DNA of 64,000 nt from an uncultured Actinomycetota bacterium (GTDB lineage: Bacteria; Actinomycetota; Actinomycetes; JAFAQI01). Location: assembly GCA_963770565.1 (NCBI GenBank), contig CAVYQE010000010.1, positions 128,001 through 192,000 on the forward strand, read 5' to 3'. This document shows positions 19,800 through 42,585 of the stretch, piece by piece. The number at the start of each line of letters is the position of its first letter. Position 1 is the first letter of the stretch. A program made the position numbers and the translations under genes. Below the pieces are notes generated by a model. The model saw nothing but the letters and a program-made list of their open reading frames with translations. It had not been told where the DNA came from and searched no databases.

Positions 19800-20672
19800 A
19801 TGTCGACAACTGCCGAGCGGACCCGGGCGCCGCGCGAGATCGGTCCGACCGGGCGGCCGCGTCCCCGACTGCGCGATCCCAAGCCGCTGCACGAGCACGG
19901 CCCGGCAAAGATCATCGCGCTGTGCAACCAGAAGGGCGGGGTCGGCAAGACGACGACCGCGATCAACCTCGGCGCGGCCCTCACCGAGTTCGGCCGCCGG
20001 GTGTTGCTGGTCGACTTCGACCCGCAGGGCGCCCTGTCCGTCGGACTCGGGGTCAATCCGCACGAGCTTGACCTGACGATCTACAACGCGCTGATGGAAC
20101 GCAACGTCAGCGCCGACGACATCCTGATCAAGACCAACAGCGGGATGGATCTGCTGCCCAGCAACATCGACCTGTCTGCCGCCGAGGTCCAGCTGGTCGG
20201 GGAGGTCGCTCGCGAGCAGTCGCTGAAGCGGGTGCTCGCGCCGATGGTCGAGGACTACGACGTCATGCTGATCGACTGCCAGCCGTCACTGGGGTTGCTG
20301 ACGATCAACGCCCTGACCGCGGCGGACGGCGTAATCATCCCGTTGGAGTGTGAATACTTTTCGCTCCGGGGCGTCGCACTGTTAATCCAAACTATAGAGA
20401 AGGTCAGCGAGCGGCTTAACCCTCAACTTCAACTTGAGGGGATTCTGGCCACCATGTACGACGCGCGCACCCTGCATGGCCGCGAGGTGCTCAGCCGGGT
20501 CGTCCAGGCGTTCGGTCCCAAGGTCTTCCACACTGTGGTCAATCGAACCGTCCGCTTCCCCGAGACGACTGTCGCGGGGGAGCCGATCACCACGTTCGCC
20601 TCGTCCTCACCGGGCGCGGCCGCCTACCGCGACCTGGCCCGAGAGGTGGTGGCGCGATGCCTCGCCGGGTGA
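19800..20672 (+). CDS. ParA/Soj-family ATPase (non-origin paralogue)
   Basis: NQKGGVGKTT, DFDPQG, DCQPSLG, RTVRFPET. Confidence 0.93.
   Translation: MSTTAERTRAPREIGPTGRPRPRLRDPKPLHEHGPAKIIALCNQKGGVGKTTTAINLGAALTEFGRRVLLVDFDPQGALSVGLGVNPHELDLTIYNALMERNVSADDILIKTNSGMDLLPSNIDLSAAEVQLVGEVAREQSLKRVLAPMVEDYDVMLIDCQPSLGLLTINALTAADGVIIPLECEYFSLRGVALLIQTIEKVSERLNPQLQLEGILATMYDARTLHGREVLSRVVQAFGPKVFHTVVNRTVRFPETTVAGEPITTFASSSPGAAAYRDLAREVVARCLAG
20422..20438. promoter_or_regulatory. 17-bp palindromic motif CTCAAC-TTCAA-CTTGAG inside the parA-like gene
   Basis: Read directly; in an AT-rich patch; same geometry as the other copies. Confidence 0.6.
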
Positions 20673-21037
20673 TCCTTCCGGGCGCCGACGAGCTGTTCCG
20701 CTCGACCGGCTCGGTGCAGCGCGCGCACGAGACCGATGGGCCGGAGCCGGCATCGGCGGGCGCAGGCGCGGTGTCCACCGAGGCACCGGCCCGCACGACC
20801 AGGCCGTCCGGGCCGCGCCATCCGAGCGGGCGGCAGCGCCACGAGGAGAAGATCACGGTCTACGTCTCGCCGAGCGAGCTGGTCGACCTCGAGCACGCCC
20901 GCCTGGTGCTTCGGGCCGACCATTCGCTGGCGGTCGACCGGGGCCGGATCGTGCGCGAGGCCCTCGCCGTCGTCCTGGCCGATCTCGAGTCGAAGGGCGA
21001 ACAAAGCATCTTGGTCCGCCGGCTCCGGGCCCGCTGA
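20657..21037 (+). CDS. small ParA-associated protein, possible ribbon-helix-helix DNA binder
   Basis: LPGADELF N-terminus, disordered linker, HEEKITVYVS...VDRGRIVREA C-terminal domain; overlaps parA stop. Confidence 0.7.
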   Translation: MPRRVILPGADELFRSTGSVQRAHETDGPEPASAGAGAVSTEAPARTTRPSGPRHPSGRQRHEEKITVYVSPSELVDLEHARLVLRADHSLAVDRGRIVREALAVVLADLESKGEQSILVRRLRAR

Positions 21038-21064
21038 CGTCCCGGGCAACGGGACGCGCTCGCC

Positions 21065-21721
21065 ATGCTCTTTGCGTTACGTCAACCTGCGACCCTGCTC
21101 GGCCTTGTCCTGGGCTTCGGGATCGGCAGTTTCCTGCGGGTGGGGGCGCAGCAGCTCTATCTCGGCGGGCGCCGGGCGGCCCGGTCGGTCCGGTCCAGCC
21201 GGATCTGGCTCGACCCCTTCGGTCTGGTCGCCGCCCTGTTGGCGGGCCCCGGTTGGTCGACCCGACCGACCTTGCGGCACGGCAAGTCCGGCCAGGTCTG
21301 GACGGTAGTGGTGATCGCGGTCGCGGTACACGCCGTACTGGCTGCGATCGGTCTGGCGGGATACCTCGCGGCCGGCGGCGTACGGCTGGCCTTTCCGTTC
21401 ATCTCGACCATCAGCGTGCTGCACGGCACCCAGGGCATCGCGTCGAGCTTCGGCCAGCGGGTCGCCCTCGGGTTCGGCGTGGAGAACCTGGCCTGCGGGC
21501 TGCTCGCCCTGGTGCCCATCCCGCCGCTTGAGCTCGGCGTCGCGCTGTGGTCGACGCTTCCGCGCAGCCCGGGCTCGCGTCGGCTGGCCTACCGGGTGCT
21601 CGAGGAGCAGTGGGGGATCGTCGTGTTGCTGGTGTTGCTCGTGATACCGCTGGCCGGGGAGTCGCCGGCCCTCCTGCAACTGGTGGGCGGAGTCGGCGAC
21701 CGGATACTGCACGCGCTCTGA
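21065..21721 (+). CDS. site-2 protease (M50)-like membrane protein, apparently lacking catalytic motifs
   Basis: LDPFG, GPGW and LVPIPPLE resemble M50 motifs but no HExxH. Confidence 0.6.
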   Translation: MLFALRQPATLLGLVLGFGIGSFLRVGAQQLYLGGRRAARSVRSSRIWLDPFGLVAALLAGPGWSTRPTLRHGKSGQVWTVVVIAVAVHAVLAAIGLAGYLAAGGVRLAFPFISTISVLHGTQGIASSFGQRVALGFGVENLACGLLALVPIPPLELGVALWSTLPRSPGSRRLAYRVLEEQWGIVVLLVLLVIPLAGESPALLQLVGGVGDRILHAL

Positions 21722-21792
21722 ACCGGGCTGAGCCGGCCGGGAGTGCGGCGAGCCGACCCGGCCAGGCAGCGGGCCTGGGCTACCGTCGAGCG

Positions 21793-22656
21793 GTGCTCCT
21801 CACTGACGATCCGGCCACGCCCGGCGGCCCCGTACCGGCGGATGACGAGTCGACGTCGCGCGCAGCGTTCCACGTCCATCTGGACGTGTTCGACGGGCCG
21901 TTCGACCTGCTGCTGAGCCTGATCGCCAAGCGACGGCTGGACGTCACGCTGGTCGCGATTGCACAGGTCACCGACGACTTCCTGGCTCACCTCCGGCTTC
22001 GACCCGATGACTGGGATCTCGACCAGGCGAGTGAGTTCCTGGTCGTGGCCGCCACCCTGCTTGATCTGAAGGTAGCCCGGTTGCTGCCCTCGGCCGAGGT
22101 CGACGAGGAGGACCTCGCGCTGCTGGAGGCACGGGATCTCCTGTTCGCCCGCCTGCTGCAGTACCGCGCCTACAAGCAGGTCGCCGGGTGGTTCGTCGAG
22201 ATGCTGGAGTCGGCCGGTCGCCGCTACCCCCGGACCGCCGGACTGGAAGCCGCCTTCCTGGCGCTGCTGCCCGATGTCGAGCTCGGGGTCGACGCCGAAG
22301 AATTCGCCTCCCTCGCGGCTCGCGCATCGGCGCCCCGGCCGCTGCCGGTCGTCGATGTCGCGCACATCCACGCTCCGGTGGTCAGCGTGCAGGAGCAGGC
22401 CGCGATCATGGCGACCCGGCTTCGACAGATCGGCGCCGGGACGTTCCGGTCCCTGACATCGGACTGCGTCGACACGATGGTTGTGGTGGTTCGCTTTCTG
22501 GCCCTCCTCGAGCTCTATCGCGAGGGCGCAGTCGCGTTCGATCAACTCGTGCCCTTCGGTGAGCTGCATGTTCGCTGGGTCGCCGGCGACGACGTCACCT
22601 CGCTCGTCACCTCGGACGTCGACGAGTCCTACGACACGGTGGCGACCGATGACTGA
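21793..22656 (+). CDS. scpA: segregation and condensation protein A
   Basis: FDGPFDLLLSLI, EFLVVAATLLDLK, RFLALLELY; TACCGT at 21781 suggests leaderless GTG start. Confidence 0.93.
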   Translation: MLLTDDPATPGGPVPADDESTSRAAFHVHLDVFDGPFDLLLSLIAKRRLDVTLVAIAQVTDDFLAHLRLRPDDWDLDQASEFLVVAATLLDLKVARLLPSAEVDEEDLALLEARDLLFARLLQYRAYKQVAGWFVEMLESAGRRYPRTAGLEAAFLALLPDVELGVDAEEFASLAARASAPRPLPVVDVAHIHAPVVSVQEQAAIMATRLRQIGAGTFRSLTSDCVDTMVVVVRFLALLELYREGAVAFDQLVPFGELHVRWVAGDDVTSLVTSDVDESYDTVATDD

Positions 22657-23242
22657 CGACCTGATCGTGGTGCCTGACGACAACGAACCGGTGATCCTGC
22701 CCGATCTCCGGGCCGGCCTGGAAGCGGTGCTGCTCGTCATCGAGGAACCGGTCGACGAAGTGACCCTCGCCCAAGTGGTCGAACGGCCGCGCGAGGAGGT
22801 CCGCGCGATGCTCCAGGAGCTTGCCGCCGACTACGACGCGACCGGGCGAGGCTTCGAACTACGCGAGGTAGCGGGCGGCTGGCGGCTCTATACCCGCGCC
22901 TCGTGCGCGCCGTACGTCGAACGGTTCGTCCGCGAAGGACACAACGCCCGGATCAGCCAGGCAGCGCTCGAGACCCTCGCGGTCGTGGCCTACCGACAGC
23001 CGACGACCCGCTCGCGGATCGCCGCGGTCCGCGGGGTCAACGTCGATGCGGTCATGCGCACGTTGGTTACCCGCGGCCTCATCGCCGAGGTCGGCATCGA
23101 ACGCGAGTCCGGTGCGATCCTGTACGCCACTACCGATCACTTCCTCGATCGGCTCGGCCTGGCCTCGCTCGAGGACCTGCCCGAGATCGCCCTCTACCTG
23201 CCGGATCACTCCGCACTTGACGACGATGCCGCCACTGGCTGA
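22649..23242 (+). CDS. scpB: SMC-Scp complex subunit ScpB
   Basis: LEAVLLV, GFELREVAGGWR, SQAALETLAVVAYRQP, FLDRLGLASLEDLP. Confidence 0.95.
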   Translation: MTDDLIVVPDDNEPVILPDLRAGLEAVLLVIEEPVDEVTLAQVVERPREEVRAMLQELAADYDATGRGFELREVAGGWRLYTRASCAPYVERFVREGHNARISQAALETLAVVAYRQPTTRSRIAAVRGVNVDAVMRTLVTRGLIAEVGIERESGAILYATTDHFLDRLGLASLEDLPEIALYLPDHSALDDDAATG

Positions 23243-23984
23243 GCACGAAACCGAGACCGCGGCGCAGGGGACCCGGCTGCAGAAGGTGCTGGCGGCGGCT
23301 GGCTTCGGCAGCAGGCGGGCCTGCGAGGCGCTGATCTCGGCCGGCCGGGTGCAGGTCAACGGGCAGACCGCTCGGCTCGGCGCCAGGGTCGACCCCCAGC
23401 ACGACCTGATCGCCCTCGACGGCGCTCAGGTTCCCACCCGCGAGGGCCTGGTCTATCTCGCGACGAACAAGCCTCGCGGCATGCTCTCGACGATGTCCGA
23501 CGAGCGCGGCCGGCCGTGCATTGGCGACCTGGTGGGCGACATGTCGACCCGGCTGCACCATGTGGGACGTCTCGACGCCGACAGCGAAGGGCTGCTCCTG
23601 GTCACGAACGACGGGGCGCTGTCGCATCGGCTGATGCACCCGTCGTTCGAGGTCACCAAGACCTACCTGGTCGAGGTCGAAGGGGTGGTGCCCCGGTCGG
23701 TCACCCGGCAGCTTCGAGCCGGTGTCGAGCTCGAGGACGGCCCGGTCGCGGTGACCGACGTCGACGTCATCGATGCCACGCCGAACCGCAGTGTGCTCGA
23801 GGTGAGCCTGCATGAGGGGCGTAAGCACGTCGTGCGGCGGCTGTTCGAGGAGGTCGGCTATCCGGTGTCCCGCCTGGTGCGGGTGTCGGTGGGCCCGATC
23901 CGGCTGGGCGCACTGAAACCCGGTGGTCGGCGGCACCTGCAACCGGGCGAGGTCCAGGCGCTGTATCGCGCAGTCGGTTTATAG
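23226..23984 (+). CDS. rluB: rRNA pseudouridine synthase (RluB-like)
   Basis: RLQKVLAAAGFGSRR S4, NKPRG, HVGRLDADSEGLLL, EGRKHVVRR. Confidence 0.92.
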   Translation: MPPLAEHETETAAQGTRLQKVLAAAGFGSRRACEALISAGRVQVNGQTARLGARVDPQHDLIALDGAQVPTREGLVYLATNKPRGMLSTMSDERGRPCIGDLVGDMSTRLHHVGRLDADSEGLLLVTNDGALSHRLMHPSFEVTKTYLVEVEGVVPRSVTRQLRAGVELEDGPVAVTDVDVIDATPNRSVLEVSLHEGRKHVVRRLFEEVGYPVSRLVRVSVGPIRLGALKPGGRRHLQPGEVQALYRAVGL

Positions 23985-24019
23985 ACTTATTTCCGAGTAG
24001 ATAAAGGGGAGGTGCGGGC

Positions 24020-24385
24020 ATGGCGGTTCGCGCGCTGCGTGGCGCCACCCAGGTCGAGGCCGACGAGCGGGGCGCCGTCATCGCCGCGACCGCGGAGCTG
24101 GTCGAGGCGGTTCTCGCCCGCAATGGGCTCACGCATGACGCGCTGATCAGCATCATCTTCACGACCACGCCCGATCTGGTTTCGGAGTTCCCGGCGTACG
24201 CCGCCCGCACCATCGGCATCACCGACGTGCCGTTTCTGTGTGCCTCGGAGATCGGAGTTCCCGGCGCGATGGAGCGAGTGATCAGGCTGCTCGCCCTGGT
24301 CGAGGCCGACTTCGGCCGGGCCGACGCCCGGCACGTCTACTTGCACGGGGCGGCCGCGCTTCGCACCGACCTGCCGCGCGACTGA
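24020..24385 (+). CDS. aroH: AroH-class chorismate mutase
   Basis: VRALRGATQV, FTTTPDL, FPAYAAR, HVYLHGAAALRTDL; strong SD GGAGG. Confidence 0.93.
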   Translation: MAVRALRGATQVEADERGAVIAATAELVEAVLARNGLTHDALISIIFTTTPDLVSEFPAYAARTIGITDVPFLCASEIGVPGAMERVIRLLALVEADFGRADARHVYLHGAAALRTDLPRD

Positions 24386-24386
24386 G

Positions 24387-25493
24387 GTGGCCGGGATGGG
24401 GGAGCCGGGGCGGCTGTTGGTGGTCGGATCGGGCCTGATCGGTACGTCGATCGCGCTGGCCGCCCAATCCGCGGGCTACCAAGTCTGGCTGGATGACTCC
24501 GACCCCGACCGGTTGTCGATGGCGGTGTCGATCGGCGCGGGGACCCGGGTGACTCCGGATGCCGGCCGGTTCGACCTTGCGGTGGTCGCGGTGCCGCCTG
24601 CATCGGTGGCCGCGGTCGTCGAGAAGCTGATCGTCTCTGACCTGGCTGCGAGTGTCACCCATGTTGCAAGCTCCCAGCTTCAGCCTCAAGTGGAGGTCGA
24701 GAGAGTGCTGCCGCAGTGCGCTCAGTTCGTCGGGAGCCATCCCGTTGCCGGTCGGGAGCGGAGCGGACCGCACCACGCCACCCCGGATCTCTTCGCTCAG
24801 CGGCCCTGGATCGTGTGCCCGACCGCGCACTCCAGCCACGCGGCAACCACTGCGGTCATCGAGCTGGCGACCAGGTGCGGGGCGGTCGTGACGGTCATGC
24901 CGGCGGCTGCGCACGACGCACTGATCGCCCAGCTGTCTCATGCGCCGCAGCTGGTCGCCTCGGCACTTGCGGGATCGCTACTCGGGCTCGAGCGAGGTGA
25001 GGCGGCACTTGCGGGCAACGGCCTTCGGGACACCTCGCGGCTGGCCGACAGCGACGCCGGCCTCTGGGCCGAGATCATCTCGGCCAACTCCGCGCCGGTC
25101 GCCGCAGCCCTGCACGCGGTGGTCGAGCCGCTCAACGACCTGATCGCGGTCCTCGAGAAAGGCTCGCCGGACGCGACCGCTAGCGCGGTCCACACACTGA
25201 TCACGCGTGGTCGCCACGGACGTGACCTGCTCGCCGGCAAGCACGGGCAGGCGGCTGTGCGCTGGGCCACCGTCGCCGTCGTCGTACCGGACGAGCCGGG
25301 CGCGCTGGCCCGTCTGCTGGTGGACGCCGCCGACGCCGCGGTCAACGTCGAGGACATCCGGGTGGACCATTCACCGGGGCAGCCACTCGGAATCGTCGAG
25401 CTCGACGTAGCACCGGATCGCCATGACTCGCTCGCCGAAGCCCTGGTTCGGCGCGGCTGGGCCGCCACCGCCAGCCCGCCCGCGGCCGACTGA
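24387..25493 (+). CDS. tyrA: prephenate dehydrogenase with C-terminal ACT domain
   Basis: GSGLIGTS, GSHPVAGRERSG, SHAPQL, LRDTSRLA, PDEPGALARL...VNVEDIRVDHS. Confidence 0.92.
   Translation: MAGMGEPGRLLVVGSGLIGTSIALAAQSAGYQVWLDDSDPDRLSMAVSIGAGTRVTPDAGRFDLAVVAVPPASVAAVVEKLIVSDLAASVTHVASSQLQPQVEVERVLPQCAQFVGSHPVAGRERSGPHHATPDLFAQRPWIVCPTAHSSHAATTAVIELATRCGAVVTVMPAAAHDALIAQLSHAPQLVASALAGSLLGLERGEAALAGNGLRDTSRLADSDAGLWAEIISANSAPVAAALHAVVEPLNDLIAVLEKGSPDATASAVHTLITRGRHGRDLLAGKHGQAAVRWATVAVVVPDEPGALARLLVDAADAAVNVEDIRVDHSPGQPLGIVELDVAPDRHDSLAEALVRRGWAATASPPAAD
24685..24701. promoter_or_regulatory. 17-bp motif CTCAAG-TGGAG-GTCGAG inside tyrA
   Basis: Read directly; local codon usage atypical. Confidence 0.5.
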
Positions 25494-25605
25494 CGCTCCC
25501 GCGGTCGTGGCACCCACGCCCAGGCACGCCCGACCCGGCTAGGCTCGGCGCGTGCCCGCGGCAAGCAAGGTGTGCGCCAAGCAGGGGTGAGGTCGAGGAG
25601 GATCG

Positions 25606-26289
25606 GTGCAGCGGCGAGATCTGGTCGTTGCGATCGACGGACCTTCCGGGTCGGGCAAGTCCACGGTCGCGCGTGAGGTCGCCAGCGCCCTGCACCTGCG
25701 CTATCTCGACACCGGCGCGATGTATCGCGCCGTGACCTGGCTGGCGCTGCAGCGAGGAGTCGCCCTTAGTGCCGCCGACCAGCTCGCTGAGCTGGCCGGC
25801 ACCGCCACGCTGACGGTGACGACGGACCCCGCGACACCTGCCATCGTCGCGAACGGCACCGACGTGACTGTAGAGGTCCGGAGCCCAGCAGTGACTGCCG
25901 CGGTCAGTGCCGTCAGCGCCGTACCAGGGGTTCGGGCCGCGATGGTGTCCCGGCAGCGGGAGATCATCGGCGCCGGCGGGATCGTGGTCGAAGGGCGGGA
26001 CATCGGCTCCACCGTGGCGCCCGATGCCGACGTGAAGGTCTTCCTGACCGCGGATCAGGCCACCCGGGCGCTGCGTCGGGCCCGCCAGGACGGGATCGCC
26101 GAGGTGCCGATTGCGCTCGAGTCCACCGAGGCCGACCTTCGGCGGCGGGACGCCGCCGACAGCACTCGGGTCGCATCGCCGCTCAAGCAGGCGCCGGACG
26201 CACTCGTCCTCGACTCCTCGGGGCTCGACATCGACCGGGTGGTGGCGATCATCGTCGAGCGGGCGCAGGCAACGGCGGTGCCGCGATGA
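25606..26289 (+). CDS. cmk: cytidylate kinase
   Basis: AIDGPSGSGKST, YLDTGAMYRA, VEGRDIG, RRDAADS. Confidence 0.96.
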   Translation: MQRRDLVVAIDGPSGSGKSTVAREVASALHLRYLDTGAMYRAVTWLALQRGVALSAADQLAELAGTATLTVTTDPATPAIVANGTDVTVEVRSPAVTAAVSAVSAVPGVRAAMVSRQREIIGAGGIVVEGRDIGSTVAPDADVKVFLTADQATRALRRARQDGIAEVPIALESTEADLRRRDAADSTRVASPLKQAPDALVLDSSGLDIDRVVAIIVERAQATAVPR

Positions 26290-26966
26290 CGAACCTGCTG
26301 GCCCCGGCCAGCAGGCAGCGCAGACGCGACGACCCCACCCGGGAGTCGATCCCGTTGACGACAGCTCGACGCGTGGCGAGGATTCTCCTCAAGCTCATCT
26401 TTAGGTTGAGGATTAGAGGCACTCAAAACCTGCCGTCGAGCGGGCCCGTCCTGCTGGCCGGCAACCACTCCGGCTTCCTGGACGGGCCGATCGTGATGAT
26501 CATGCTGCCCAGGCCCTCGGCGTTCCTGGTGAAGAGCGAGATCTTCAAGGGCCCACTGCGTTTTGTGCTGACATTCGCCCGGCAGATCCCGATCCACCGG
26601 GGCACCCCGGACCGGACCGCGCTGCGCCGCGGGCTCGCCGTGCTGGCCGGCGGTGGTGTGCTCGGGGTGTTCCCGGAAGGGACTCGTGGAAGCGGTGATC
26701 TGGCCACGATCCAGCACGGAATCGGCTATCTCGCCCTCAACGCCCAGTGTCCAGTGGTACCGGTGTTGTGCAAGGGAACTCATGAGGCGTTGCCGAAGGG
26801 CAAGGTGATACCGCGCTGGCGGGCACCGATCGAGGTGGTCTTCGGCCCGGCCTTCATGCTGGACATCCCAGGCGACGTGCGCACCCGCGCGACGATCGCG
26901 GCGGCGGCCGAGCAGGTGCGGGCACACCTGCTCGAGCTCCTCGAGGCCGAGCGGCGCTCGCCATGA
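26286..26966 (+). CDS. lysophospholipid acyltransferase (PlsC-like)
   Basis: NHSGFLD (HX4D), FPEGTR, PVVPV. Confidence 0.92.
26388..26410. promoter_or_regulatory. two overlapping 17-bp motifs (CTCAAG-CTCAT-CTTTAG; CTCATC-TTTAG-GTTGAG) inside the acyltransferase gene
   Basis: Read directly; conspicuous AT-rich patch. Confidence 0.55.
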
Positions 26967-28306
26967 CCGGCGGTGCGGCCGCGCTGCCGGTGGTGGCCGT
27001 CATCGGGCGCCCCAACGTCGGCAAGTCGACGCTGGTGAACCGCGTTCTCGGGCGGCGTGAGGCCGTCGTCGAGGACGTTCCGGGCGTGACCCGGGATCGG
27101 GTGGCGTACGAAACCGAGTGGGCCGGGCGGGCCTTCACGGTGCTAGACACCGGGGGATGGCAGCCGGATGCGCGCGGGCTGGCTGCGCGGGTGGCGGCCG
27201 CCGCCGAGCTCGCGGTCGAGGCCGCTGACGTCGTGGTGCTGGTCGTCGACGCAACGGTTGGGATCACTGAGGTCGACGCGGCCGTGAGCCGGGTGCTGCA
27301 GCGCTCCGGGCGGCCGATCCTCCTCGCCGCCAACAAAGTCGACTCGGCGAAGGCCGAGCCGGAGATCGCCGCGTTGTGGAGACTCGGCGTAGGCCCCCCG
27401 CTTCCGGTCAGTGCTCTGCACGGCCGGGGGAGCGGGGACCTGCTCGACGCCATCGTCGCCGTACTACCCGACGTCGCAGCACCGCTTCCCGACCAGGACG
27501 GCCCGCGCCGAGTCGCCCTGATCGGGCGCCCGAACGTCGGCAAGTCCAGCCTGCTCAACCAGCTGGTCGGCTCGGACCGTGCGCTGGTCGACGCGGAAGC
27601 AGGCACCACCCGCGACCCGGTCGACGCGGTGGTCGATATCGATGGAACGATATGGCGCTTTGTCGACACTGCAGGCCTCCGCAAGCGGGTGCACGAAGCG
27701 ACCGGTGCCGAGTACTACTCGAGCCTGCGGACTTCAGCGGCGATCGACGCGGCCGAGGTCGTGCTGCTTCTGCTCGATGCGTCGGAGTCGATCAGCGACC
27801 AGGACCTGCGGGTCGCCGACAAGGTCGTCGAGGCCGGTCGGGCGCTCGTCGTCGCCATGAACAAGTGGGACCTGGTCGACGATGACCGCCGTGAGCAGCT
27901 CGACCGTGAGCTCGACCGCGACTTCGGCCGGTTCAGCTGGGCGACCCGGCTGAACATCTCCGCCCGGACCGCGCGAGGGGTCAAGCGGATCGCCCCGGCC
28001 CTGGAGGCGGCGTTGGACTCCTGGCAGACCCGGGTGCCGACGGGGGAGTTGAACGCGTACCTCGCGAGCGTCGTCGGCGCTACGCCACCGCCGGTGCGCG
28101 GTGGGAAGCAGCCCAAGATCATGTTCGCGACCCAGCCCGGAGTCGAGCCCCCGAGGTTCGTGCTGTTCACGTCGGGCCCGCTCGAGGCGTCGTACCGACG
28201 GTTCCTCGAGCGCCGCCTGCGCGAGCGCTACGGCTTCGCGGGCTCGCCCATCGATCTGGCCGTCAAAGCCCGCGAGAAGACGAAGCGAACCGCCCGCAGT
28301 CGGTGA
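26963..28306 (+). CDS. der: ribosome biogenesis GTPase Der (EngA)
   Basis: Two G domains (GRPNVGKS twice, DTGG/DTAG, NKVD/NKWD) plus KH-like C-terminus. Confidence 0.97.
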
Positions 28307-28383
28307 ACCGCGCGCCTCGTCGCTGCGTGCTCCGTATCGGCGGCGCAGCCGCGCCCTTGACCCACCGATGAACGGGGCAGCTC

Positions 28384-29235
28384 GTGAGAAACCGCAGCAC
28401 GCTCGGAGCGTCATTTCTGCTCAGCGCCGCCCTGGTGGCGGCCGCCGGCTCGTTGCCCGCGCAGGCCAGCGCGCACTCGAGGGTCCATCACAAGGGGATC
28501 GAGATCTCGACGGTCAAGACCTCGAAGTTCGGCCGGGTCGTATCGAACCAGAAGGGCCGGGTGATGTACCTCTACAGCAAGGACGGCCACAAGGTCTCGC
28601 ACTGCAACGGCGCCTGCGCCGGCGCCTGGCCAAAGGTCACCAGCAGGTTCAAGCCGCGGGCCGAGAACGGCATCAGTGCGAAACATCTGGCCCGGACGAA
28701 GAAGGGTCAGGTCACCTACTACGGCCACCCGCTGTACTACTTCGCCACCGGCACCAAGCCCGGCAACACCAGCGGCGAGAACGTGGCCGGGTTTTTCGTG
28801 GTCTCGCCCCACGGCACGGCGGTCAAGCCAAAGACCAAGAAGCCGACTGGCCCGACCGGCCCGGCCGAGGTCACCACGGGCACCATCTCCACCAACACCG
28901 TTCTGACCACCAGCAAGGGCTTCACCCTTTATGCGTTGACGAACCCCAACGAGAAGACGTCGTACTACTGCACCGCGTCCTGCCTTGGGGTCTGGAAGCC
29001 GTTGCTCACCAAGGGTGCACCGACCGCAGCGGGCAGCGCGATGGGGTCATTGCTGAGCTCGGTCAACCGGTCCGGCGTCGGTGACCAGGTCACCTACAAC
29101 GGCTATCCGCTCTACACCTACACCGGCGATACGGCGGCCGGGCAGGACGACGGAGAAGCGCTCTTCGGGCCCTACTACCCTTATTCCACGCAGTACTGGT
29201 ACGACCTCAAGCCGGACGGTACCTTCATCCTCTAA
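28384..29235 (+). CDS. secreted protein with Y-X4-D repeats (COG4315 / Lipoprotein_15-like)
   Basis: Signal peptide; repeated GxxxYxYxxD, CxGACxxxWP and QVTYxGxPLY units. Confidence 0.85.
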   Translation: MRNRSTLGASFLLSAALVAAAGSLPAQASAHSRVHHKGIEISTVKTSKFGRVVSNQKGRVMYLYSKDGHKVSHCNGACAGAWPKVTSRFKPRAENGISAKHLARTKKGQVTYYGHPLYYFATGTKPGNTSGENVAGFFVVSPHGTAVKPKTKKPTGPTGPAEVTTGTISTNTVLTTSKGFTLYALTNPNEKTSYYCTASCLGVWKPLLTKGAPTAAGSAMGSLLSSVNRSGVGDQVTYNGYPLYTYTGDTAAGQDDGEALFGPYYPYSTQYWYDLKPDGTFIL

Positions 29236-29249
29236 GGCCGGCCGATGAC

Positions 29250-29300
29250 CTTGACGGAGAGGGCGTTCGGAACCCCCTCCTCAGCGCCCTCTCCGTCAAG
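29250..29300. terminator. 16-bp inverted repeat, probable terminator between convergent genes
   Basis: CTTGACGGAGAGGGCG / CGCCCTCTCCGTCAAG starting 15 nt after the stop. Confidence 0.7.
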
Positions 29301-29564
29301 CTTCCGGCCGGTCGAACTCCTCACTCGATCGACTCAACGGGCCCTTGCCGAGAACTTGATCCGCCATCCGGGTGAATCTCCGCACGACGCTCCGATCGGC
29401 GGCCCGCCGTCCCTACGATCGAACGCATGCTGCCGAGCCCACGGCGCAGTGTGCTGGTTGGTCACGCGGTCCGGTTCTGCTGGCAGTTCGTGGCCAACTC
29501 AGCGCTGCTGATCGCCTTCCACCAGTTCATCCTGACCAGCCCGCACTAGCCACGCATTCGCCCG

Positions 29565-30508: not shown

Positions 30509-30582
<74 letters not shown>

Positions 30583-32479: not shown

Positions 32480-33220
32480 ATGAGCGCCGCGAGCAACGCC
32501 TCTCACGCGTTCATGAGCATCGGGGAGGTCCTCGGCCAGCTGCGGGCCGAGTTCCCCGACGTCACGATCTCCAAGATCCGCTTCCTCGAGTCCGAGGGTC
32601 TGGTCGAGCCGGCCCGCACCTCCTCGGGCTATCGCAAGTTCTCCCGGGACGACGTCGGCCGGCTGCGCTACGTCCTTGCTGCGCAGCGCGACAACTACCT
32701 GCCGTTGCGAGTCATCAAAGGGCACCTCGAGGCGATCGACCGCGGCCTGCAACCCGCGGCCAACAGTCAGCTCACCCCGCAGGTGCCGCGGGCCCGGGCC
32801 GAGAGTGACGGGCTGCCCGACGCGGACGACTTCATGCCGGAGGCATCTGAGCTAAGACTGTCGCGCCAGGAGCTCCTCGATGCCGCCGACATCGACGGCG
32901 AGCTGCTGAGCCAGATCGAGGGTTTCGGCCTCGTCACGCCCGGCCCGAGCGGCCACTACGACGGAGACGCGCTGGTGATCGTCAAGACGGTCGCGGAGAT
33001 GAGCCGGTTCGGGTTGGAACCTCGCCATCTCCGGTCGTTCCGCACGACTGCCGAGCGCGAAATCGGCCTGGTCGAGCAGGTGGTGTCGCCCCTCGTCCGG
33101 CAGCGAAACCCCGAGGCACGGGGCCGTGCGGACGAAGTCGCACGCGAGTTGGCCAGCCTGTCGGTGCGGCTGCACACGACCCTGGTCCGCTCCGGCCTGC
33201 GCCCGCAACTGCGGGGATAG
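32480..33220 (+). CDS. ftsR: MerR-family regulator, FtsR/Rv1828-like
   Basis: MSIGEVL...EFPDVTISKIRFLESEGL...RTSSGYRKF; directly downstream of garA as in Corynebacterium and Mycobacterium. Confidence 0.8.
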   Translation: MSAASNASHAFMSIGEVLGQLRAEFPDVTISKIRFLESEGLVEPARTSSGYRKFSRDDVGRLRYVLAAQRDNYLPLRVIKGHLEAIDRGLQPAANSQLTPQVPRARAESDGLPDADDFMPEASELRLSRQELLDAADIDGELLSQIEGFGLVTPGPSGHYDGDALVIVKTVAEMSRFGLEPRHLRSFRTTAEREIGLVEQVVSPLVRQRNPEARGRADEVARELASLSVRLHTTLVRSGLRPQLRG

Positions 33221-33309
33221 CCGGGCGGGCCCCGATTCGGCCCATACCGACCACCCGCGGCCCGGTGTAGTTTCTGAAGGAGGAGTCGGAGCGCGGAGCG
33301 GAGTCAGTG

Positions 33310-33783
33310 GTGAACGAGCTCACGGTGGTCGGGGTCCGGGTCGAGCTCCCGTCGAATCAACCCATCGTCCTGCTCAAAGAGGCCGCGGGGGACCGTTACT
33401 TACCGATCTGGATCGGGGCGGTCGAAGCCACCGCCATCGCCTTCGCCCAACAGGGCATCGTCCCGGCCCGTCCGCTCACCCATGACCTGCTCAAGGACAT
33501 CCTGCAGGCGGTCGGCGCCAGTCTTGACGCCGTGATGATCACTGAGCTTCGGGACGGCGTGTACTACGCGGACCTGCGCTTCGGCGACGGGACCTCGGTC
33601 TCGGCCCGCCCCTCGGATGCGATCGCGCTGGCGATCCGCGCCGGCACGGTCATCTACGCCGAAGAAGCGGTGCTCGACGCCGCCGGGATCACCATCCCGG
33701 ACGAGCAAGAGTCCGAGGTCGAGCGCTTCCGGGAGTTCCTGGACCAGATATCTCCCGAGGATTTTGAGACGGACGCCCCATAG
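33310..33783 (+). CDS. bifunctional nuclease family protein (DUF151)
   Basis: RYLPIWIGAVEA, RPLTHDL, SARPSDAIALA. Confidence 0.92.
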   Translation: MNELTVVGVRVELPSNQPIVLLKEAAGDRYLPIWIGAVEATAIAFAQQGIVPARPLTHDLLKDILQAVGASLDAVMITELRDGVYYADLRFGDGTSVSARPSDAIALAIRAGTVIYAEEAVLDAAGITIPDEQESEVERFREFLDQISPEDFETDAP

Positions 33784-33788
33784 GTAGT

Positions 33789-33805
33789 CTCAACTATGGG
33801 TTGAG
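33789..33805. promoter_or_regulatory. perfect palindrome CTCAAC-TATGG-GTTGAG
   Basis: Extends to TCTCAAC/GTTGAGA; just upstream of a sigmaA-like promoter. Confidence 0.7.
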
Positions 33806-33829
33806 AATAAGGACGCGCCGACCGAAGGA

Positions 33830-33858
33830 TTGACGGAGACACTCGGCGTGCCTAGCGT
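33830..33858 (+). promoter_or_regulatory. sigmaA-type promoter for the second MerR gene
   Basis: TTGACG-N17-TAGCGT. Confidence 0.6.
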
Positions 33859-33928
33859 CTCCCCGGTAATTCCAACCGTGGTGTTTGCGGCTGGCATGAG
33901 CAGTTCTCGGGCTTGGTCGGAGGCATGA

Positions 33929-34480
33929 GTGGCGAACGACGGCACACGAGGCACGCAGGGAGCATTGTTCGGCCGCGAGCAGGTCGGGGGCGACCCGATC
34001 GGATATCGCGGCCCTACGGCGTGCTCAGCCGCCGGGATCAGCTACCGCCAGCTCGACTACTGGGCCCGCACCGCGCTGGTCGAGCCGTCCGTCCGTCCCG
34101 CGAGCGGGTCCGGGAGCCAGCGGTTGTATTCCTTCCGCGACATCCTGACCCTCAAGGTTGTCAAGCGCCTGCTCGACACCGGCGTCTCGCTACCGAACAT
34201 CCGCCTCGCGGTCGCCCACCTGCGCGAGCGCGGAGACGAGGATCTCACCGGGATCACGCTGATGAGCGACGGAACGACGGTCTACGCCTGTACGTCGCCG
34301 GATGAGGTCATCGACCTGGTGCAGGGCGGCCAGGGCGTGTTCGGGATCGCCGTCGGCCGGGTCGTGACTGAAGTCGAGGGCCGGCTCGCCGAGCTGCCCT
34401 CCGAGCGGGCCGAGCCCGACCCGAACGCGACCACGAGCGACGAGCTTGCGGCGCGCCGCAAGCGCCGCAGCACCGCGTAG
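33929..34480 (+). CDS. MerR-family regulator, Rv1830-like
   Basis: GYRGPTACSAAGISYRQLDYWART, GSGSQRLYSFRD, GGQGVFGIA. Confidence 0.9.
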   Translation: MANDGTRGTQGALFGREQVGGDPIGYRGPTACSAAGISYRQLDYWARTALVEPSVRPASGSGSQRLYSFRDILTLKVVKRLLDTGVSLPNIRLAVAHLRERGDEDLTGITLMSDGTTVYACTSPDEVIDLVQGGQGVFGIAVGRVVTEVEGRLAELPSERAEPDPNATTSDELAARRKRRSTA

Positions 34481-34518
34481 TCGCAGACTTCGCTGCTAGC
34501 GTCGGGGTGTCTGATCAC

Positions 34519-34720
34519 CCCGCACGGGAGAGACCTCGGCACGCCAGTCCGAGGCGCCGAAGGAGCAACCTCCCCGGAACCTCTCAGGCAGACGGACCGC
34601 GCGGGCAGGGCACTCTGGAGAGCAGGCGCACCATGCGCCTCACCGACGGGGCAAGCCCGTGACTTGGCGTTGTCAGAGCGCCGGTTCGGGTGACACTCTC
34701 AGGTTCCGGTGACAGAGGGG
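34519..34720 (+). promoter_or_regulatory. tandem glycine riboswitch
   Basis: Two aptamers GGAGA...CCGAAGGAGCAA...CTCTCAGG and CTCTGGAGA...CCGACGGGGCAA...CTCTCAGG...GACAGAG upstream of gcvP. Confidence 0.93.
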
Positions 34721-34763
34721 GAGCCAGCGCCACGCCGCCCGGCGTGCGGCCCCGGAGGCTCTC

Positions 34764-37601
34764 ATGACCCCCGACTCGACGGCTCGTTTCGCCGATCGTC
34801 ACATCGGCCCGTCACCCGACGAGCAGGCCAAGATGCTCGCCGTCGTCGGGCATGGATCGCTGCACGACCTGGCCGCCGCCGCCCTTCCGGAATCGATCCT
34901 CAGCACCCAGGCGCTCGCGGTCCCGCCGGCCGGCTCCGAGGCGGAGATCCTCGCCGAGCTCCGGGACCGGGCCGCCCAGAACCGCCTCGTCACGTCGATG
35001 ATCGGGCTCGGCTGGCACGACACGATCACCCCGCCCGTCCTGCTTCGCGGCATCCTCGAGGACCCGGGTTGGTACACCGCCTACACGCCCTACCAACCCG
35101 AGATCTCCCAGGGCCGGCTCGAGGCATTGCTCAACTTCCAGACCCTGGTTTCGGACCTGACCGGGCTGCCGGTGGCGGGGGCCTCGTTGCTCGATGAGTC
35201 GACAGCAGCAGCTGAGGCTATGTCGTTGTGCCGACGTAGCTCTAAGTCGACAAGTAACCGCTTCATTGTCGACTCGGGTTGTCATCCGCACACGCTCGGC
35301 GTGCTCCACACCCGCGCTCAGCCGATCGGGCTCGAGCTGGTCGTCGCGGACCTCAGTGACGAGGTTCCGGACGGCGATTTCTTCGGCATTCTGGTCGCAT
35401 ATCCGGGCTCGACCGGGGCGGTCTTCGGACTGGACCCCGTGGTCACCGCGGCCCACGAGCATGGCGCCTTGGTCGCGGTCACGACCGACCTGCTGGCCCT
35501 GACCCTGCTCCGGTCACCAGGGGAGTGGGGAGCCGACATCGCGGTCGGCTCGGCCCAGCGGCTCGGCGTCCCGCTCGGGTTCGGCGGTCCGCACGCCGGC
35601 TTCATGGCGGTGCGCGCCGGTCTCGAGCGCGGCCTGCCCGGCCGGCTGGTCGGGGTCAGCGTCGACGCCGACGGCGCACCCGCCTACCGCCTCGCCCTGC
35701 AGACCCGCGAGCAGCACATCCGCCGGGAAAAGGCCACCAGCAACATCTGCACCGCCCAGGTCCTACTCGCCGTCGTCGCCGCCTGCTACGCCGCCTACCA
35801 CGGCCCCGCTGGCCTGACCGCGATCGCGACCCGGATCCACGGCCACGCGGCCCGGCTTGCTGCCGCGCTTCGCGCCGGGGGCATCGAGGTGCCGGCCGAC
35901 GTGGTGTTCGACACGGTCGCCGTCGCCGTCCCGGGTCGCGCGGACGAGGTCGTGGCAGCCGCGCTGACCGGCGGGATCAACCTGCGGAGGATCGACGCCG
36001 ACAGGGTCGGGGTCAGCTGCGACGAGTGCACGACGACCGACCACGTCACGGCGGTCCTCGCCGCGTTCGGCGTACCGGAGGTGCCGTCGGGGGACGCCGG
36101 CTCGATCCCGGCTGAGCTGCGCCGGACGACGCCGTTCCTGACCCACCCGGTCTTCTCGGCGCACCACTCCGAGACCGAGATGATGCGCTACCTGCGCCGG
36201 CTCTCCGACCGCGACCTGGCGCTCGACCGGTCGATGATCCCGCTCGGCTCGTGCACGATGAAGCTCAACGCCGCGGCCGAGATGGAGCCGATCACCTGGC
36301 CTGAGTTCGCCGGGATCCATCCGTTCGCACCGCTCGACCAGGCCGCCGGGCACCTCGCGATCATCCACGACCTCGAGCAGTGGTTGGCCACGATCACCGG
36401 GTACGACGCGGTGTCGCTGCAGCCCAACGCCGGGTCACAAGGCGAGTTCGCCGGCTTGCTGGCAATCCGGGCCTACCACCGCGATCGGGGCGCTACCGAG
36501 CGCGACGTCTGCCTGATCCCGTCCTCGGCGCACGGCACCAACGCGGCCAGCGCGGCGATGGCGGGGATGCGGGTCGTGGTGGTCGAGTGCGACGACGCCG
36601 GCAACGTCAGCCTCGACGACCTTCGCACGAAGATCGCCACTCACCACGACCGGCTCGCGGCCATCATGGTCACCTACCCGTCCACCCACGGCGTCTTCGA
36701 GTCGGGCATCACCGAGCTGTGCGGGCTGGTTCACGACGCGGGCGGCCAGGTATACGTCGACGGCGCCAACCTCAACGCGCTGGTCGGCCTCTCGAAGCCC
36801 GGCCAGTTCGGCGCCGACGTGTCGCATCTGAACCTGCACAAGACGTTCTGCATCCCGCACGGCGGTGGCGGTCCCGGCGTCGGCCCAGTGGCCGTCCGGG
36901 ACCACCTCGCGCCGTACCTGCCCAACCACCCGCTCGTGCCGTCCGCCGGCCCGGCGACCGGCATCGGCCCGGTCTCGGGTGCGCCGTGGGGCTCGGCCGG
37001 CATCCTGCCGATTCCGTGGGCCTACATCCGGCTGATGGGCCCGGACGGACTCACCGAGGCCACCGAGGTCGCCCTGCTCTCGGCCAACTACATCGCCCGG
37101 CGGCTATCCGCGCACTACCCGGTTCTCTACACCGGCCGCGGCGGACTGGTCGCGCATGAGTGCATCGTCGACGTCCGCCCGATCACCAAGGCGACCGGTG
37201 TCACCGTCGAGGACATCGCGAAGCGGCTGATCGACTACGGCTTCCACGCGCCGACCATGTCGTTCCCGGTGGCCGGCACGCTCATGATCGAGCCGACCGA
37301 GTCGGAGGGCCTCGCCGAGCTCGACCGGTTCTGCGACGCGATGATCGACATCCGCGCGGAGATCGAGCGGGTCGGGTCAGGGGAGTGGCCCGCCGACGAC
37401 AACCCGCTGCACAACGCGCCGCACACCGCGGCCTTCCTACTCCGCGAGTGGACCTCGCCGTATGGCCGGGAGCTGGCGGCGTACCCGCAGCGACGGCTGC
37501 GCCAGGACAAGTACTGGCCACCGGTACGACGGATCGATCAGGGTTACGGCGACCGCCACCTCACCTGCAGCTGCCCGCCGATCGAGGCCTACGCCGAGTA
37601 G
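34764..37601 (+). CDS. gcvP: glycine dehydrogenase (decarboxylating)
   Basis: [60 protein letters not shown]. Confidence 0.98.
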
Positions 37602-37613
37602 GGAGTGCGGCCC

Positions 37614-37820
37614 TCAGGCGGCGGAGACGCTGGCGAGGAACTGGGCCCGGCGCTGCGGCTCGATCACGCGGCCGTCGGGAAGCAGGTCACCCTCGTCGTC
37701 GAAGGTCACGACGCCGTTGCACAGCAGGCTCCAGCCCTGCTCCGGGTGGCTCGAGATCACCCGGGCTGCGTCGCGATCGACGGCATCCGAGGATGGGCAA
37801 GCCGGCCGGTGTCGGCACAT
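37614..37820 (-). CDS. DUF5999-like small protein
   Basis: MCRHRPACPSSDAVDRDAARVISSHPEQGWSLLCNGVVTFDDEGDLLPDG; typically found after gcvP. Confidence 0.85.
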   Translation of the reverse strand: MCRHRPACPSSDAVDRDAARVISSHPEQGWSLLCNGVVTFDDEGDLLPDGRVIEPQRRAQFLASVSAA

Positions 37821-37988
37821 CGGGTGCCTCCGCTTCGAGTCGTATGCCGGCAACGGGCGATGCCGACACTTCAATCTTCGGCGGAACACCCGGGTGTCCC
37901 GATAGGGAGTGTTGACCAAATGTGGATGGCTAGTTGGGGGCGAAAGGCTGTGCGGGATGGACCAAAGGTCGCTACTCCGTTTGCGACA

Positions 37989-39848: not shown

Positions 39849-39876
39849 ACTTGACATAATGTCCATTATCGGCGAT
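39849..39876 (-). other. chromosomal dif site (XerC/XerD recombination site)
   Basis: Minus strand ATCGCCGATAA-TGGACA-TTATGTCAAGT: 11-6-11 layout, XerD arm close to E. coli TTATGTTAAAT; intergenic; gene strand bias flips here. Confidence 0.88.
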
Positions 39877-40038: not shown

Positions 40039-40383
40039 ATGGCTGATCGAGTTCTGCGCGGCAGCCGGCTCGGCACGACGAGTTACGAGACGGACCGCAA
40101 TACGGACCTTGCGCCGCGGCGCGAGGTCGTCTACGACTGCCTGAACGGGCACGAGACTCGGATGCCGATGGCGGTGGACGCCGAGCTTCCGGCTACCTGG
40201 GAGTGCCGCACCTGCGGTGCGACCGCTCAGCTTCGCGACGGCGAGGTGCCGGCGCAGCGAGCCGGCAAGCCGGTCCGCACCCACTGGGACATGCTGCTCG
40301 AGCGGCGCTCGCTCGACGACCTGGAAGACGTGCTCAACGAGCGGCTGGCCGAGCTCCGGCCGCGGCCGCGCAAGTCCGCCTGA
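40039..40383 (+). CDS. rbpA: RNA polymerase-binding protein RbpA
   Basis: LRGSRLG..SYETDR, C-x2-GH...WECxxCG, RTHWDMLLERRS; SD AGGAGG. Confidence 0.97.
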   Translation: MADRVLRGSRLGTTSYETDRNTDLAPRREVVYDCLNGHETRMPMAVDAELPATWECRTCGATAQLRDGEVPAQRAGKPVRTHWDMLLERRSLDDLEDVLNERLAELRPRPRKSA

Positions 40384-42002: not shown

Positions 42003-42077
42003 TACCGATCGGACGGTATCAATCGGGCCGCCCGGAACGGGTCACAACCGGATCACGTCGCCGTCACGCCAGGCGCG

Positions 42078-42326
42078 AGAAAGGCCCGGGTGCCCTTCGG
42101 ACCGCCGCGATGGCGACCGGCCGTCGCCGTGGCGGCGTTGTCTACTGGGCACCCGGGCCACTCCCGAGTAGCCGCACCACGCCCGGGGTGCCTCAGCGCC
42201 GACGGGCCGTCGACCAACTGGACCTGGCACCTGCTCGGCGCCGCGGGTGCACGCGGACTGCCGACCGGCCAGCTGGGTTCTCCGGTGTCGGACCGAGGAC
42301 GCTCGGGCGTCCCTGTGGTGGACGCC
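42078..42326 (-). ncRNA. putative structured non-coding RNA (~250 nt), family not recognised
   Basis: Promoter TTGACA-N19-TAGTTT (42361-42331); 5' hairpin GGCGTCC/GGACGCC; 3' 13-bp stem 42083-42095/42147-42159 enclosing a second stem, followed by TTTCTC. Confidence 0.55.
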
Positions 42327-42369
42327 AGGCAAACTAGCGGTATCCCCCGGGAGGCTGTCAACCGCCCTC

Positions 42370-42401
42370 TGACCTGCGGAAACGCACGAAGCCGCAGGTC
42401 A
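42370..42401. repeat. 10-bp inverted repeat TGACCTGCGG/CCGCAGGTCA
   Basis: Read directly; intergenic hairpin. Confidence 0.6.
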
Positions 42402-42568
42402 ACGCCATGATCGATGATCATCAAAACCTTGGGCCCAACCTGATCGGAGCAACGCCGGCACCCGCCCGGGTCGGAGGCCGGCCGCTGCACCCGCGACCGG
42501 TCGCTCCGCGGCCGACTCGACCGTACGACGAGCCGAGGCCCAGTCAGTCCGCTTGTATGCTCCTTGAT

Positions 42569-42585
42569 CTCAACCTAAGGTCGAG
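42569..42585. promoter_or_regulatory. 17-bp motif CTCAAC-CTAAG-GTCGAG
   Basis: Read directly; just past the lrp stop; extends to TCTCAAC/GTCGAGA. Confidence 0.6.

Follow-up and report, generated by a model that had tools for sequence, protein, structure and literature searches.

The stretch of DNA analysed here, referred to as the window, covers 64,000 nucleotides of an uncultured Actinomycetota bacterium (positions 128001-192000 of contig C10 in the assembly designated G000) and contains, within 22 kb that also hold a dif-like site, six strong copies of a 25-bp box, AACCCTCAACC-N3-GGTTGAGGGTT, of the type recognised by the MerR-family division regulator FtsR, whose gene lies in the same block. 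The array of boxes is real and under selection. It probably represents a conserved local FtsR regulon with autorepression, in which the boxes situated inside genes would have transcriptional roles; the boxes at promoters are explained in this way, those inside genes and the tie to dif are not. The genome amounts to 4.43 Mb in 11 contigs, with 69% G+C and a completeness of 94.9%, its closest named relatives being metagenome genomes labelled Frankiaceae or Mycobacteriales. Positions are those of the window unless a contig or locus is named, the letters G, L, C and f denoting genomes, fetched loci, contigs and families, respectively.

The 17-bp palindrome CTCAAS-N5-STYGAG, which on sequence grounds forms the core of the 25-bp box, had been listed in the initial annotation at 20422, 24685, 26388/26394, 31872, 33789 and 42569, and this recurrence is borne out by counts, shuffles and matrix scans alike. 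The exact pattern occurs at four distinct places of the window (20422, 24685, 33789 and 42569); the copies at 26388 and 26394 deviate from it by one mismatch each and that at 31872 by two. Counting both strands, there are six exact matches in the window against 0.04 expected, a number not reached in any of 100 dinucleotide shuffles, and of the six sites with the exact pattern in the entire genome, four belong to the window. If the pattern is made symmetric and one mismatch is tolerated, 31 sites are found in the 4.43 Mb, six of which fall between 20422 and 42569. Thirty palindromes of matched composition served for comparison, and those of them with 20-32 matches in the genome place at most four within 25 kb, against six for the box palindrome; the total numbers of genomic matches—1 to 202 for the individual matched palindromes and 31 for that of the box—cover too wide a range for avoidance to be read from them.

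Since this pattern had been fitted to the window, the test was repeated with two matrices independent of it. Matrix 1 is a consensus, i.e. the site in the ftsZ promoter of Corynebacterium glutamicum (PMC6683498) made symmetric, and matrix 2 was trained on 86 boxes from 80 loci of other actinomycetes, its scores being expressed as log-odds bits. With the former, the region upstream of ftsZ ranks first in the genome and five of the 12 best matches lie in the window (binomial 5e-7). With the latter, six of the seven best matches of the 4.43 Mb are found in 22 kb, or 0.5% of the genome (binomial ~1e-13), and when the two promoter boxes whose orthologues had trained the matrix are left out, four of the five best are in the window (~3e-9). 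The six main sites of the window score 20.6-29.0 bits; after the top seven come scores of 20.3, 19.2 and 17.5 bits, the first of them belonging to one site assembled twice, because C9:1-3000 duplicates a part of C2 (9000-13000) in reversed orientation and one box-like site is thus counted two times. It should be pointed out that plain counting of matches to CCTCAACC-N3-GGTTGAGG was swamped by G+C-rich chance matches and by a repeat family of contig C1, hence the use of log-odds matrices, and that the boxes in the ftsZ promoters of relatives were discarded as an independent training set, being weak palindromes with overlapping half-sites that offered no unambiguous alignment.

The density peak near dif accompanied by a site at ftsZ, as predicted by the initial annotation, was obtained in these scans of the whole genome: the matches are neither uniformly distributed nor confined to promoters, and they lie far above the codon-recoded expectation. 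Its remark that the first 18 kb hold no good copy also stands, no window site before 20418 reaching 9 bits with matrix 2. The weaker copies it had added mostly fail with the same matrix, those at 18782 (best score in 18700-19700, 5.1 bits) and 40450 (4.2 bits) being lost and that at 33752 lying neither within two mismatches nor above 9 bits; the copy at 61599 is retained as a marginal box-like site (61595-61619, between the Pup ligase and proteasome genes), with 12.5 bits in matrix 2 and 17.0 in matrix 1.

Concerning the protein, the product of 32480-33220 (+) matches the NCBIfam model NF050798 (TF_FtsR_Actino) with 290.4 bits against a cut-off of 150 (E 1.2e-86), contains an N-terminal MerR helix-turn-helix (Pfam MerR and MerR_1) and, with its C-terminal half (residues 124-244), matches the Rv1828 structure 5YDC (E 1.6e-29). 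The locus shows the gene order garA-ftsR-bifunctional nuclease-second MerR, which is that described for FtsR loci (garA/odhI-ftsR-nuclease-MerR; PMC6683498). As to the motif, the experimentally defined ftsZ site of C. glutamicum, AACCCTAAAGTAAAGGTTGAGGGTA (PMC6683498), contains the palindrome, and the 25-mer inside the parA-like gene of the window agrees with it at 18 of 25 positions, as counted by eye; the ftsZ-promoter site of Mycobacterium tuberculosis is of the published FtsR site type, too. At the sequence level, the FtsR identity of both the motif and the protein, put forward already in the initial annotation, is well supported, and FtsR dimers most likely bind all six boxes in this organism.

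It is improbable that the boxes are bound by some other protein, such as the second MerR regulator of the cluster (McdR-like) or one of the HspR type, and only resemble FtsR sites, even if two MerR genes are present in the cluster and half-sites of the MerR family can look alike. The HspR repeat also contains TTGAG/CTCAA, but with the half-sites in opposite order and at a different spacing. The published motif of McdR/Rv1830, AATnACA-N4-TGTnATT (PMC9040748), differs from the box and has no match in the window with up to two mismatches allowed, which makes the second MerR an unlikely binder. Moreover, the same matrix that finds the boxes picks the ftsZ promoter, a validated type of FtsR target, and the box itself agrees with the site employed for gel-shift with FtsR.

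Three of the six boxes are located inside coding sequence. The best match of the genome (rank 1, 29.0 bits with matrix 2, to which all ranks refer unless stated otherwise) is AACCCTCAACTTCAACTTGAGGGGA at 20418-20442, a perfect 17-bp palindrome occupying codons ~241-249 of the parA-like gene (19698-20672). The tyrA box at 24681-24705 corresponds to codons ~99-107 of the prephenate dehydrogenase gene (24387-25493; rank 7, 20.6 bits), and the double box at 26384-26414, covering codons ~33-43 of the acyltransferase gene plsC (26286-26966), consists of two copies offset by 6 bp, of which one ranks second (27.3 bits) and the overlapping one scores 16.4 bits. The remaining three are positioned in front of garA (31868-31892; rank 5, 23.6 bits), in front of the second MerR gene (33785-33809; rank 6, 21.1 bits) and in the lrp/lnt interval (42565-42589; rank 4, 23.7 bits), the last one between lrp and the unnamed gene 42053-42490 that precedes lnt, ~80 bp upstream of the start codon of this gene at 42490. 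The only one of the top seven outside the window lies in front of ftsZ, at C11:978150 and ~138 bp from its start codon (rank 3 with 25.7 bits; rank 1 with matrix 1). Overlapping box pairs offset by exactly 6 bp, equal to four tandem half-sites, are not limited to plsC; they are seen also in G004 (L018:9145/9151 and L019:8612/8618), G014 (L008:1318/1324) and G019 (C1:4389698/4389704), and such an offset would, judging from the spacing, bring two dimers to opposite sides of the helix.

The intragenic boxes are under selection at the level of DNA. In the genes of the window, CTG or CTC account for 86% of leucine codons and CAG for 86% of those for glutamine, and the box in the parA-like gene is spelled CTT AAC CCT CAA CTT CAA CTT GAG GGG ATT, the codons CTT, CCT, CAA, CTT, CAA, CTT and ATT each representing 3-14% of the usage for their own amino acid. 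The tyrA box reads CTT CAG CCT CAA ... AGA and that of plsC AGG ATT ... TTT AGG TTG AGG ATT AGA, so the claim that the intragenic copies employ A/T-rich rare codons is confirmed by codon counts. When each gene was synonymously recoded 4000 times with the codon usage of the window and scored at the position of the box, the observed score was reached at the same place in 8 (parA), 3 (tyrA) and 0 (plsC) of the 4000 recoded genes, and a 17-mer without mismatch appeared nowhere in any of the 4000 recoded versions of parA. A natural control agrees with this check of synonymous sites: the parA box is preserved, spelled in the same rare codons, in G004, G005, G009, G010 and G019, whereas G013 encodes a near-identical peptide by the common codons CCC GAC CTG GAG CTG and has no box. 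Upstream of the parA box, rare codons follow one another again at 20376-20399 (GCA CTG TTA ATC CAA ACT ATA GAG), and families f1 and f21 have preserved this stretch as DNA sequence; its minus strand reads TATAGT, 21 nt from the edge of the box, and an antisense promoter is possible there.

The same data leave hardly any room for chance, or for a by-product of protein sequence and codon usage, as the origin of the array. The ParA peptide NPQL.LEG does bias its position toward a box, the mean recoded score there being 11.8 bits; nevertheless, the four exact sites against 0.04 expected, the recoding and the genomic ranking refute such an origin, and the conservation of position also speaks against it. 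That the intragenic palindromes act as hairpins in mRNA, i.e. as processing or pausing signals, is very unlikely, too. The parA box and the lrp-proximal box do fold better as RNA than their shuffles (z -2.13 and -3.94), but the other four are no better (z -0.29, -0.27, +0.67 and -1.38), so a hairpin function does not explain the set; furthermore, several of the predicted folds bypass the arms of the palindrome, conservation concerns the letters of the half-sites and not their ability to pair, and the same sequence is found in promoter DNA.

The conservation of the boxes was followed in syntenic DNA of ten relatives and in wider samples of the class; genomes that are related are not independent, and all counts of this kind therefore overstate the number of independent events. 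The box at parA residue ~246 is shared by G004, G005, G009, G010 and G019 (and by L090), the one at tyrA residues ~100-105 by G004, G005, G009, G019 and, outside these ten, by G240, G105, G238, G082, G107 and G256, and orthologous boxes in the lrp/lnt interval by G004, G005 and G019; the boxes of the garA and second-MerR promoters recur in relatives as well. At plsC residue ~39, a box is found among the relatives only in G004 (25.9 bits) and G005 (18.6 bits), and not in G009, G010, G013 and G014, which use common codons there. At a threshold giving 17 matches in the whole G000 genome, the fetched stretches contain 10 matches in G019 (80 kb), 8 in G010, 7 in G005, 6 in G004, 5 in G008 (16.7 kb), 4 in G009, 2 each in G014 and G013, 1 in G018 and 0 in G015.

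Beyond the close relatives, the parA-box pattern AAYCCTCAACTNNANNTNGA was looked for in 301 genomes sampled from the whole class; 41 of them contain it, each a single time, with 8/12 in family f1, 4/6 in f7, 9/14 in f21 and 4/12 in f26, and none in several large families; its reversed control has no match among the genomes displayed, and 29 of the 30 loci returned carry the pattern in the same ParA peptide context. Nine genomes of families f26, f32, f40 and f41 hold 42 boxes against two control matches, situated at parA ~246, the scpB-rluB junction (8/9), tyrA ~101 (6/9) and the garA and second-MerR promoters. The junction box, between the scpB stop and the rluB start, is represented in L152, L157, L159, L160, L162, L164, L165 and L168, as well as in G019 and G010; it has been lost in G000, where the best score at this place is -4.7. 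In 80 diverse loci centred on ftsR (1.34 Mb), there are 92 matches against 8 for the reversed control, 26 of them at 0-1000 bp upstream of ftsR, the bin of the garA promoter, and 55 at 1000-1999 bp past its start, the bin of the mcdR-like promoter, the second-MerR promoter holding the most widely conserved box of all.

The boxes follow their genes. In G019, a complete genome, the lrp/lnt boxes and the garA/parA boxes are ~100 kb apart with the gene contexts kept. Where parA is inverted, as in two acI-type genomes, the box is found in the divergent parA/scpA intergenic region, and in L076 it lies just upstream of parA; these placements tie the box to the expression of parA/scpAB. Some boxes are specific to a lineage, namely those inside plsC (G000, G004 and G005), inside lnt and in the gcvH/pgsA gap (G019), and inside pgsA (L105).

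The promoter boxes have a readable geometry. In front of garA-ftsR, hexamers TTGACC-N18-TAGCGT (31832-31861, +) can be read from the sequence, followed 6 nt later by the box, and this layout of promoter and then box is repeated in 10 of the 11 other genomes displayed. The box would cover roughly +1 to +25, and since it overlies the presumed start, the arrangement is that of a repressor acting on its own operon: FtsR bound there would cover the transcription start and be its own repressor. In the second-MerR promoter region (33785-33858, +), the order read is box, 20 nt and TTGACG-N17-TAGCGT (33830-33858), a TTGAC hexamer occurring ~20 nt past the box in 8 of 14 displayed genomes. At the ftsZ promoter activated by FtsR in C. 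glutamicum, the site is located at -73 (PMC6683498); the centre of the second-MerR box, at about -68 from the presumed start, is comparable, and FtsR therefore probably controls this second division regulator. Mycobacterial mcdR promoters contain a conserved and unexplained 'region_1' upstream of the WhiB2 site, noted in a paper whose text, as far as available, does not mention Rv1828 (PMC9040748).

Based on the above results, it appears probable that FtsR governs a conserved local regulon. The intragenic boxes in the parA-like gene, tyrA and plsC, together with that upstream of lnt, would modulate transcription through the co-directional block parA-scpA-scpB-rluB-tyrA-cmk-plsC-der, acting as roadblocks or else serving internal or antisense promoters as operators, and the boxes would be clustered because the conserved FtsR targets, ftsZ excepted, are neighbours in an old block that here also holds dif. 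This explanation draws on the published type of the motif, its concentration in the genome, the DNA-level selection, the conserved positions and the promoter geometry read from the sequence; from these we infer the binding in this organism, the direction of regulation and the effect of every intragenic box.

Several observations weigh against such a regulon as the full account. The tyrA and plsC boxes are ~910 and ~560 bp, respectively, from the next start codon, which is far for operators, and no promoter-like hexamers accompany them; a scan of 18000-37900 with sigma-70 and terminator consensus patterns gave one promoter-like site (0.7 expected) and none at any box. A common geometry of box and hexamer was looked for and rejected, as box-21 nt-TANNNT fits only the garA side and the minus strand of parA, and the antisense TANNNT 21 nt from the parA box is found in just 19 of 30 parA loci. 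The parA and plsC boxes outscore that of ftsZ, which would be unusual for incidental regulation, and the lineage-specific boxes arose within this block, not elsewhere. Finally, the nine strongest FtsR peaks of C. glutamicum include none of these genes (PMC6683498), so either the regulon differs between lineages or weaker peaks lie beyond the nine. The regulon does not account for the crowding of the boxes, nor for the gains made by single lineages inside the block.

These last features bring in the terminus. The dif-like site CCGATAATGGACATTATGTCAA (39851-39872, -), between the phosphatase gene and rbpA, has one mismatch to a degenerate dif pattern, is the only one in the genome, and lies at the point of C10 where the cumulative GC skew turns from rising to falling. 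It is found at the same place in 7 of 10 close relatives, and in 15 of the 80 foreign loci, from several orders, a dif-like site lies 4.6-10 kb past the ftsR start. In G019, dif is at 4,416,053, between the lrp/lnt boxes and the garA/parA boxes, and three of four perfect palindromes (binomial 4e-5) and seven of 36 one-mismatch matches (1e-5) are within 114 kb spanning it. The fourth perfect palindrome of that genome (C1:1,500,957; L038:9945-9975), a perfect 25-bp consensus, is far from dif, between convergent genes and beside a parA/parB-like pair.

An architectural or titrating array, i.e. FtsR bound to dense boxes and marking dif-proximal DNA besides regulating promoters, can be suggested tentatively, and we consider it unlikely; a coating of the terminus by FtsR and its coupling to division, as put forward in the initial annotation, is not supported here. 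Two forms can be imagined: a tether of the terminus to the division or segregation machinery, similar to that of ZapT or MatP or centromere-like for the orphan ParA-type ATPase, and a decoy whose copy number doubles only when the terminus is replicated, thereby timing free FtsR and the transcription of ftsZ. The array would fit the concentration of six of the seven best genomic boxes in the 22 kb including dif and that of the G019 palindromes on both sides of dif within 114 kb, the DNA-level selection on intragenic boxes far from start codons, the continuing rise of new boxes inside the block, and the proximity of ftsR to a dif-like site in the 15 foreign loci; there is also the precedent of ZapT, which belongs to the MerR family and binds mostly inside genes, with a bias toward the terminus (PMC7188993), and the phenotype of the C. 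glutamicum ftsR deletion, which is not explained by ftsZ expression alone (PMC6683498).

On the other hand, just six boxes over 22 kb do not make a macrodomain. The strong boxes spread over 22 kb in G000 and 114 kb in G019, which is short of hundreds of kb, although a wider spread of weak sites stays possible in an assembly of 11 contigs. Near ftsR, the majority of lineages have retained just the pair of promoter boxes, and it is these two near-universal boxes that have ordinary operator geometry. Families f26, f32, f40 and f41 possess the array with no dif-like site, by the criteria used here, in the 40 kb fetched; the boxes travel with their genes after rearrangement; the fourth perfect box of G019 is elsewhere; and the nine top C. 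glutamicum peaks are dispersed, none being at odhI-ftsR (PMC6683498). In G000, at its completeness of 94.9%, the MatP family PF06303 has no match, the Escherichia coli control being detected, and the ZapA family PF05164 has none either, ZauP not having been searched for. A predicted complex of FtsR with the ParA-type ATPase scored 0.00 with two alignments, which carries no weight either way.

In its most specific form, the idea is that FtsR has a dual function, activating ftsZ and, through the array, providing a sequence-defined landmark of the terminus beside dif; this we regard as slightly more doubtful still. Such a landmark could be a handle for division or segregation that includes the orphan ParA-type ATPase, a decoy reporting the completion of replication, or a set of fork-pausing sites, the last beside the autoregulated gene of their binding protein, by analogy with Tus and RTP.

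With respect to known systems, the protein and the motif are not new: the equivalog family, the gene context, the 25-bp inverted repeat and the box upstream of ftsZ are all shared with FtsR (Cg1631/Rv1828/SCO1383). What differs is the layout of the array beside ftsR. In C. glutamicum, the published targets (nine top peaks; PMC6683498) are found at promoters in scattered parts of the chromosome, and the Streptomyces study by DNA affinity purification sequencing (DAP-seq), in its available text, reports ftsZ alone (bioRxiv 10.64898/2026.06.06.730586), whereas here the strongest boxes adjoin ftsR, three of them within coding sequence. Neither the dense array at ftsR with conserved intragenic boxes, nor the autorepression, nor a link from FtsR to McdR was found described in the FtsR, McdR and Streptomyces DAP-seq literature, although the full peak lists behind PMC6683498 and the DAP-seq tables may contain weaker FtsR peaks at odhI, cg1633 or parA-like genes.

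By analogy, ZapT of Caulobacter crescentus can be taken as the nearest functional precedent, being likewise a MerR-family protein linked to division, with sites mostly in open reading frames and biased to the terminus (PMC7188993). It differs in that its 10 sites are scattered over ~0.9 Mb and share no consensus motif, in its low specificity in vitro, in being encoded with ihfA—the homologue criterion of its authors—and in working with ZapA and ZauP (PMC7188993); here, the consensus is sharp, six boxes share 22 kb, ftsR comes after garA and not ihfA, and ZapA has no match. With MatP/matS the array has in common palindromic sites concentrated around dif, but the protein fold and the scale are different and the MatP family has no match. 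There are about two dozen matS sites, distributed over some 800 kb. In parS/ParB and in Ter with adjacent tus or rtp, a few high-affinity sites, some of them intragenic, lie within tens of kb of a chromosomal landmark, with the gene of the binding protein beside the sites and autoregulated through one of them. The array resembles these systems in that layout, yet no relative of ParB, Tus or RTP is involved, and the FtsR boxes, being symmetric, are without the polarity of Ter sites.

The part of the window at 17-44 kb is a well-known conserved gene block, and the gene assignments made earlier for the ParA-type ATPase, prephenate dehydrogenase, acyltransferase, garA, FtsR, second MerR and Lrp/AsnC products are all upheld. 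The alanine dehydrogenase gene is followed by the parA-like gene, two unnamed genes, scpA, scpB, rluB, the chorismate mutase gene, tyrA, cmk, plsC, der and a lipoprotein gene, and then by tRNA-Pro, pgsA, gcvH, garA (31942-32451, +; Pfam FHA), ftsR and the gene with the bifunctional-nuclease domain. The second MerR-family gene (33929-34480, +; Pfam MerR_1), mcdR-like and by synteny in the position of Rv1830/McdR, precedes tandem glycine riboswitch aptamers (34515-34719, +), arranged as expected ahead of gcvP; past gcvP come a hydrolase gene, the inositol monophosphatase gene and, beyond the dif-like site, rbpA (40039-40383). On the minus strand there are lnt, preceded in its operon by the unnamed gene 42053-42490, and lrp (42590-43030), encoding the Lrp/AsnC regulator. 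By synteny, the parA-like gene may be that of PldP. PldP itself has been linked to Tat dynamics and not to DNA (bioRxiv 10.1101/2025.07.02.662783).

Some further features of the sequences should be mentioned. The two genes between the parA-like gene and scpA (20657-21037 and 21065-21721) are conserved without any Pfam or NCBIfam match, the first of them overlapping the parA-like stop codon by 16 nt and staying paired with parA even where the pair is inverted. Directly upstream of lrp, the sequence at 43206-43335 (-) matches the c-di-GMP-II-GAG variant of riboswitch with 48.4 bits, the gathering score being 40. The repeat family of contig C1 has ends CATTAGCCGG.GGTTGAGG and CCTCAACC.CCGGCT.ATG, paired ~154 bp apart, and occurs at many places (e.g. 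7898/8052, 145477/145631 and 164061/164215), resembling a small mobile element. Two other palindromes of G000 may be repeated signals of a different kind, AACTCS-N5-SGAGTT with 55 one-mismatch matches, up to five per 25 kb, and ATCACS-N5-SGTGAT with 202 matches.

FtsR is the only transcriptional activator of ftsZ described in Actinobacteria, and the present results offer four leads on it. The 25-bp box is now better defined; FtsR probably represses itself at the garA-ftsR promoter and is probably linked to a second, essential division regulator of the McdR/ResR type; and boxes inside the gene of the ParA-type ATPase, inside tyrA and at the scpB-rluB junction are deeply conserved, being kept against codon bias in at least 10 families. 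It is uncommon for sites of a transcription factor inside genes to stay at identical codons in different families. In combination with the link to dif, the intragenic boxes make a coupling of termination, segregation and division in actinomycetes directly testable; the terminus landmark, if true, would have no described precedent as a terminus-marking system among Actinobacteria, and its motif is sharp enough to be searched for.

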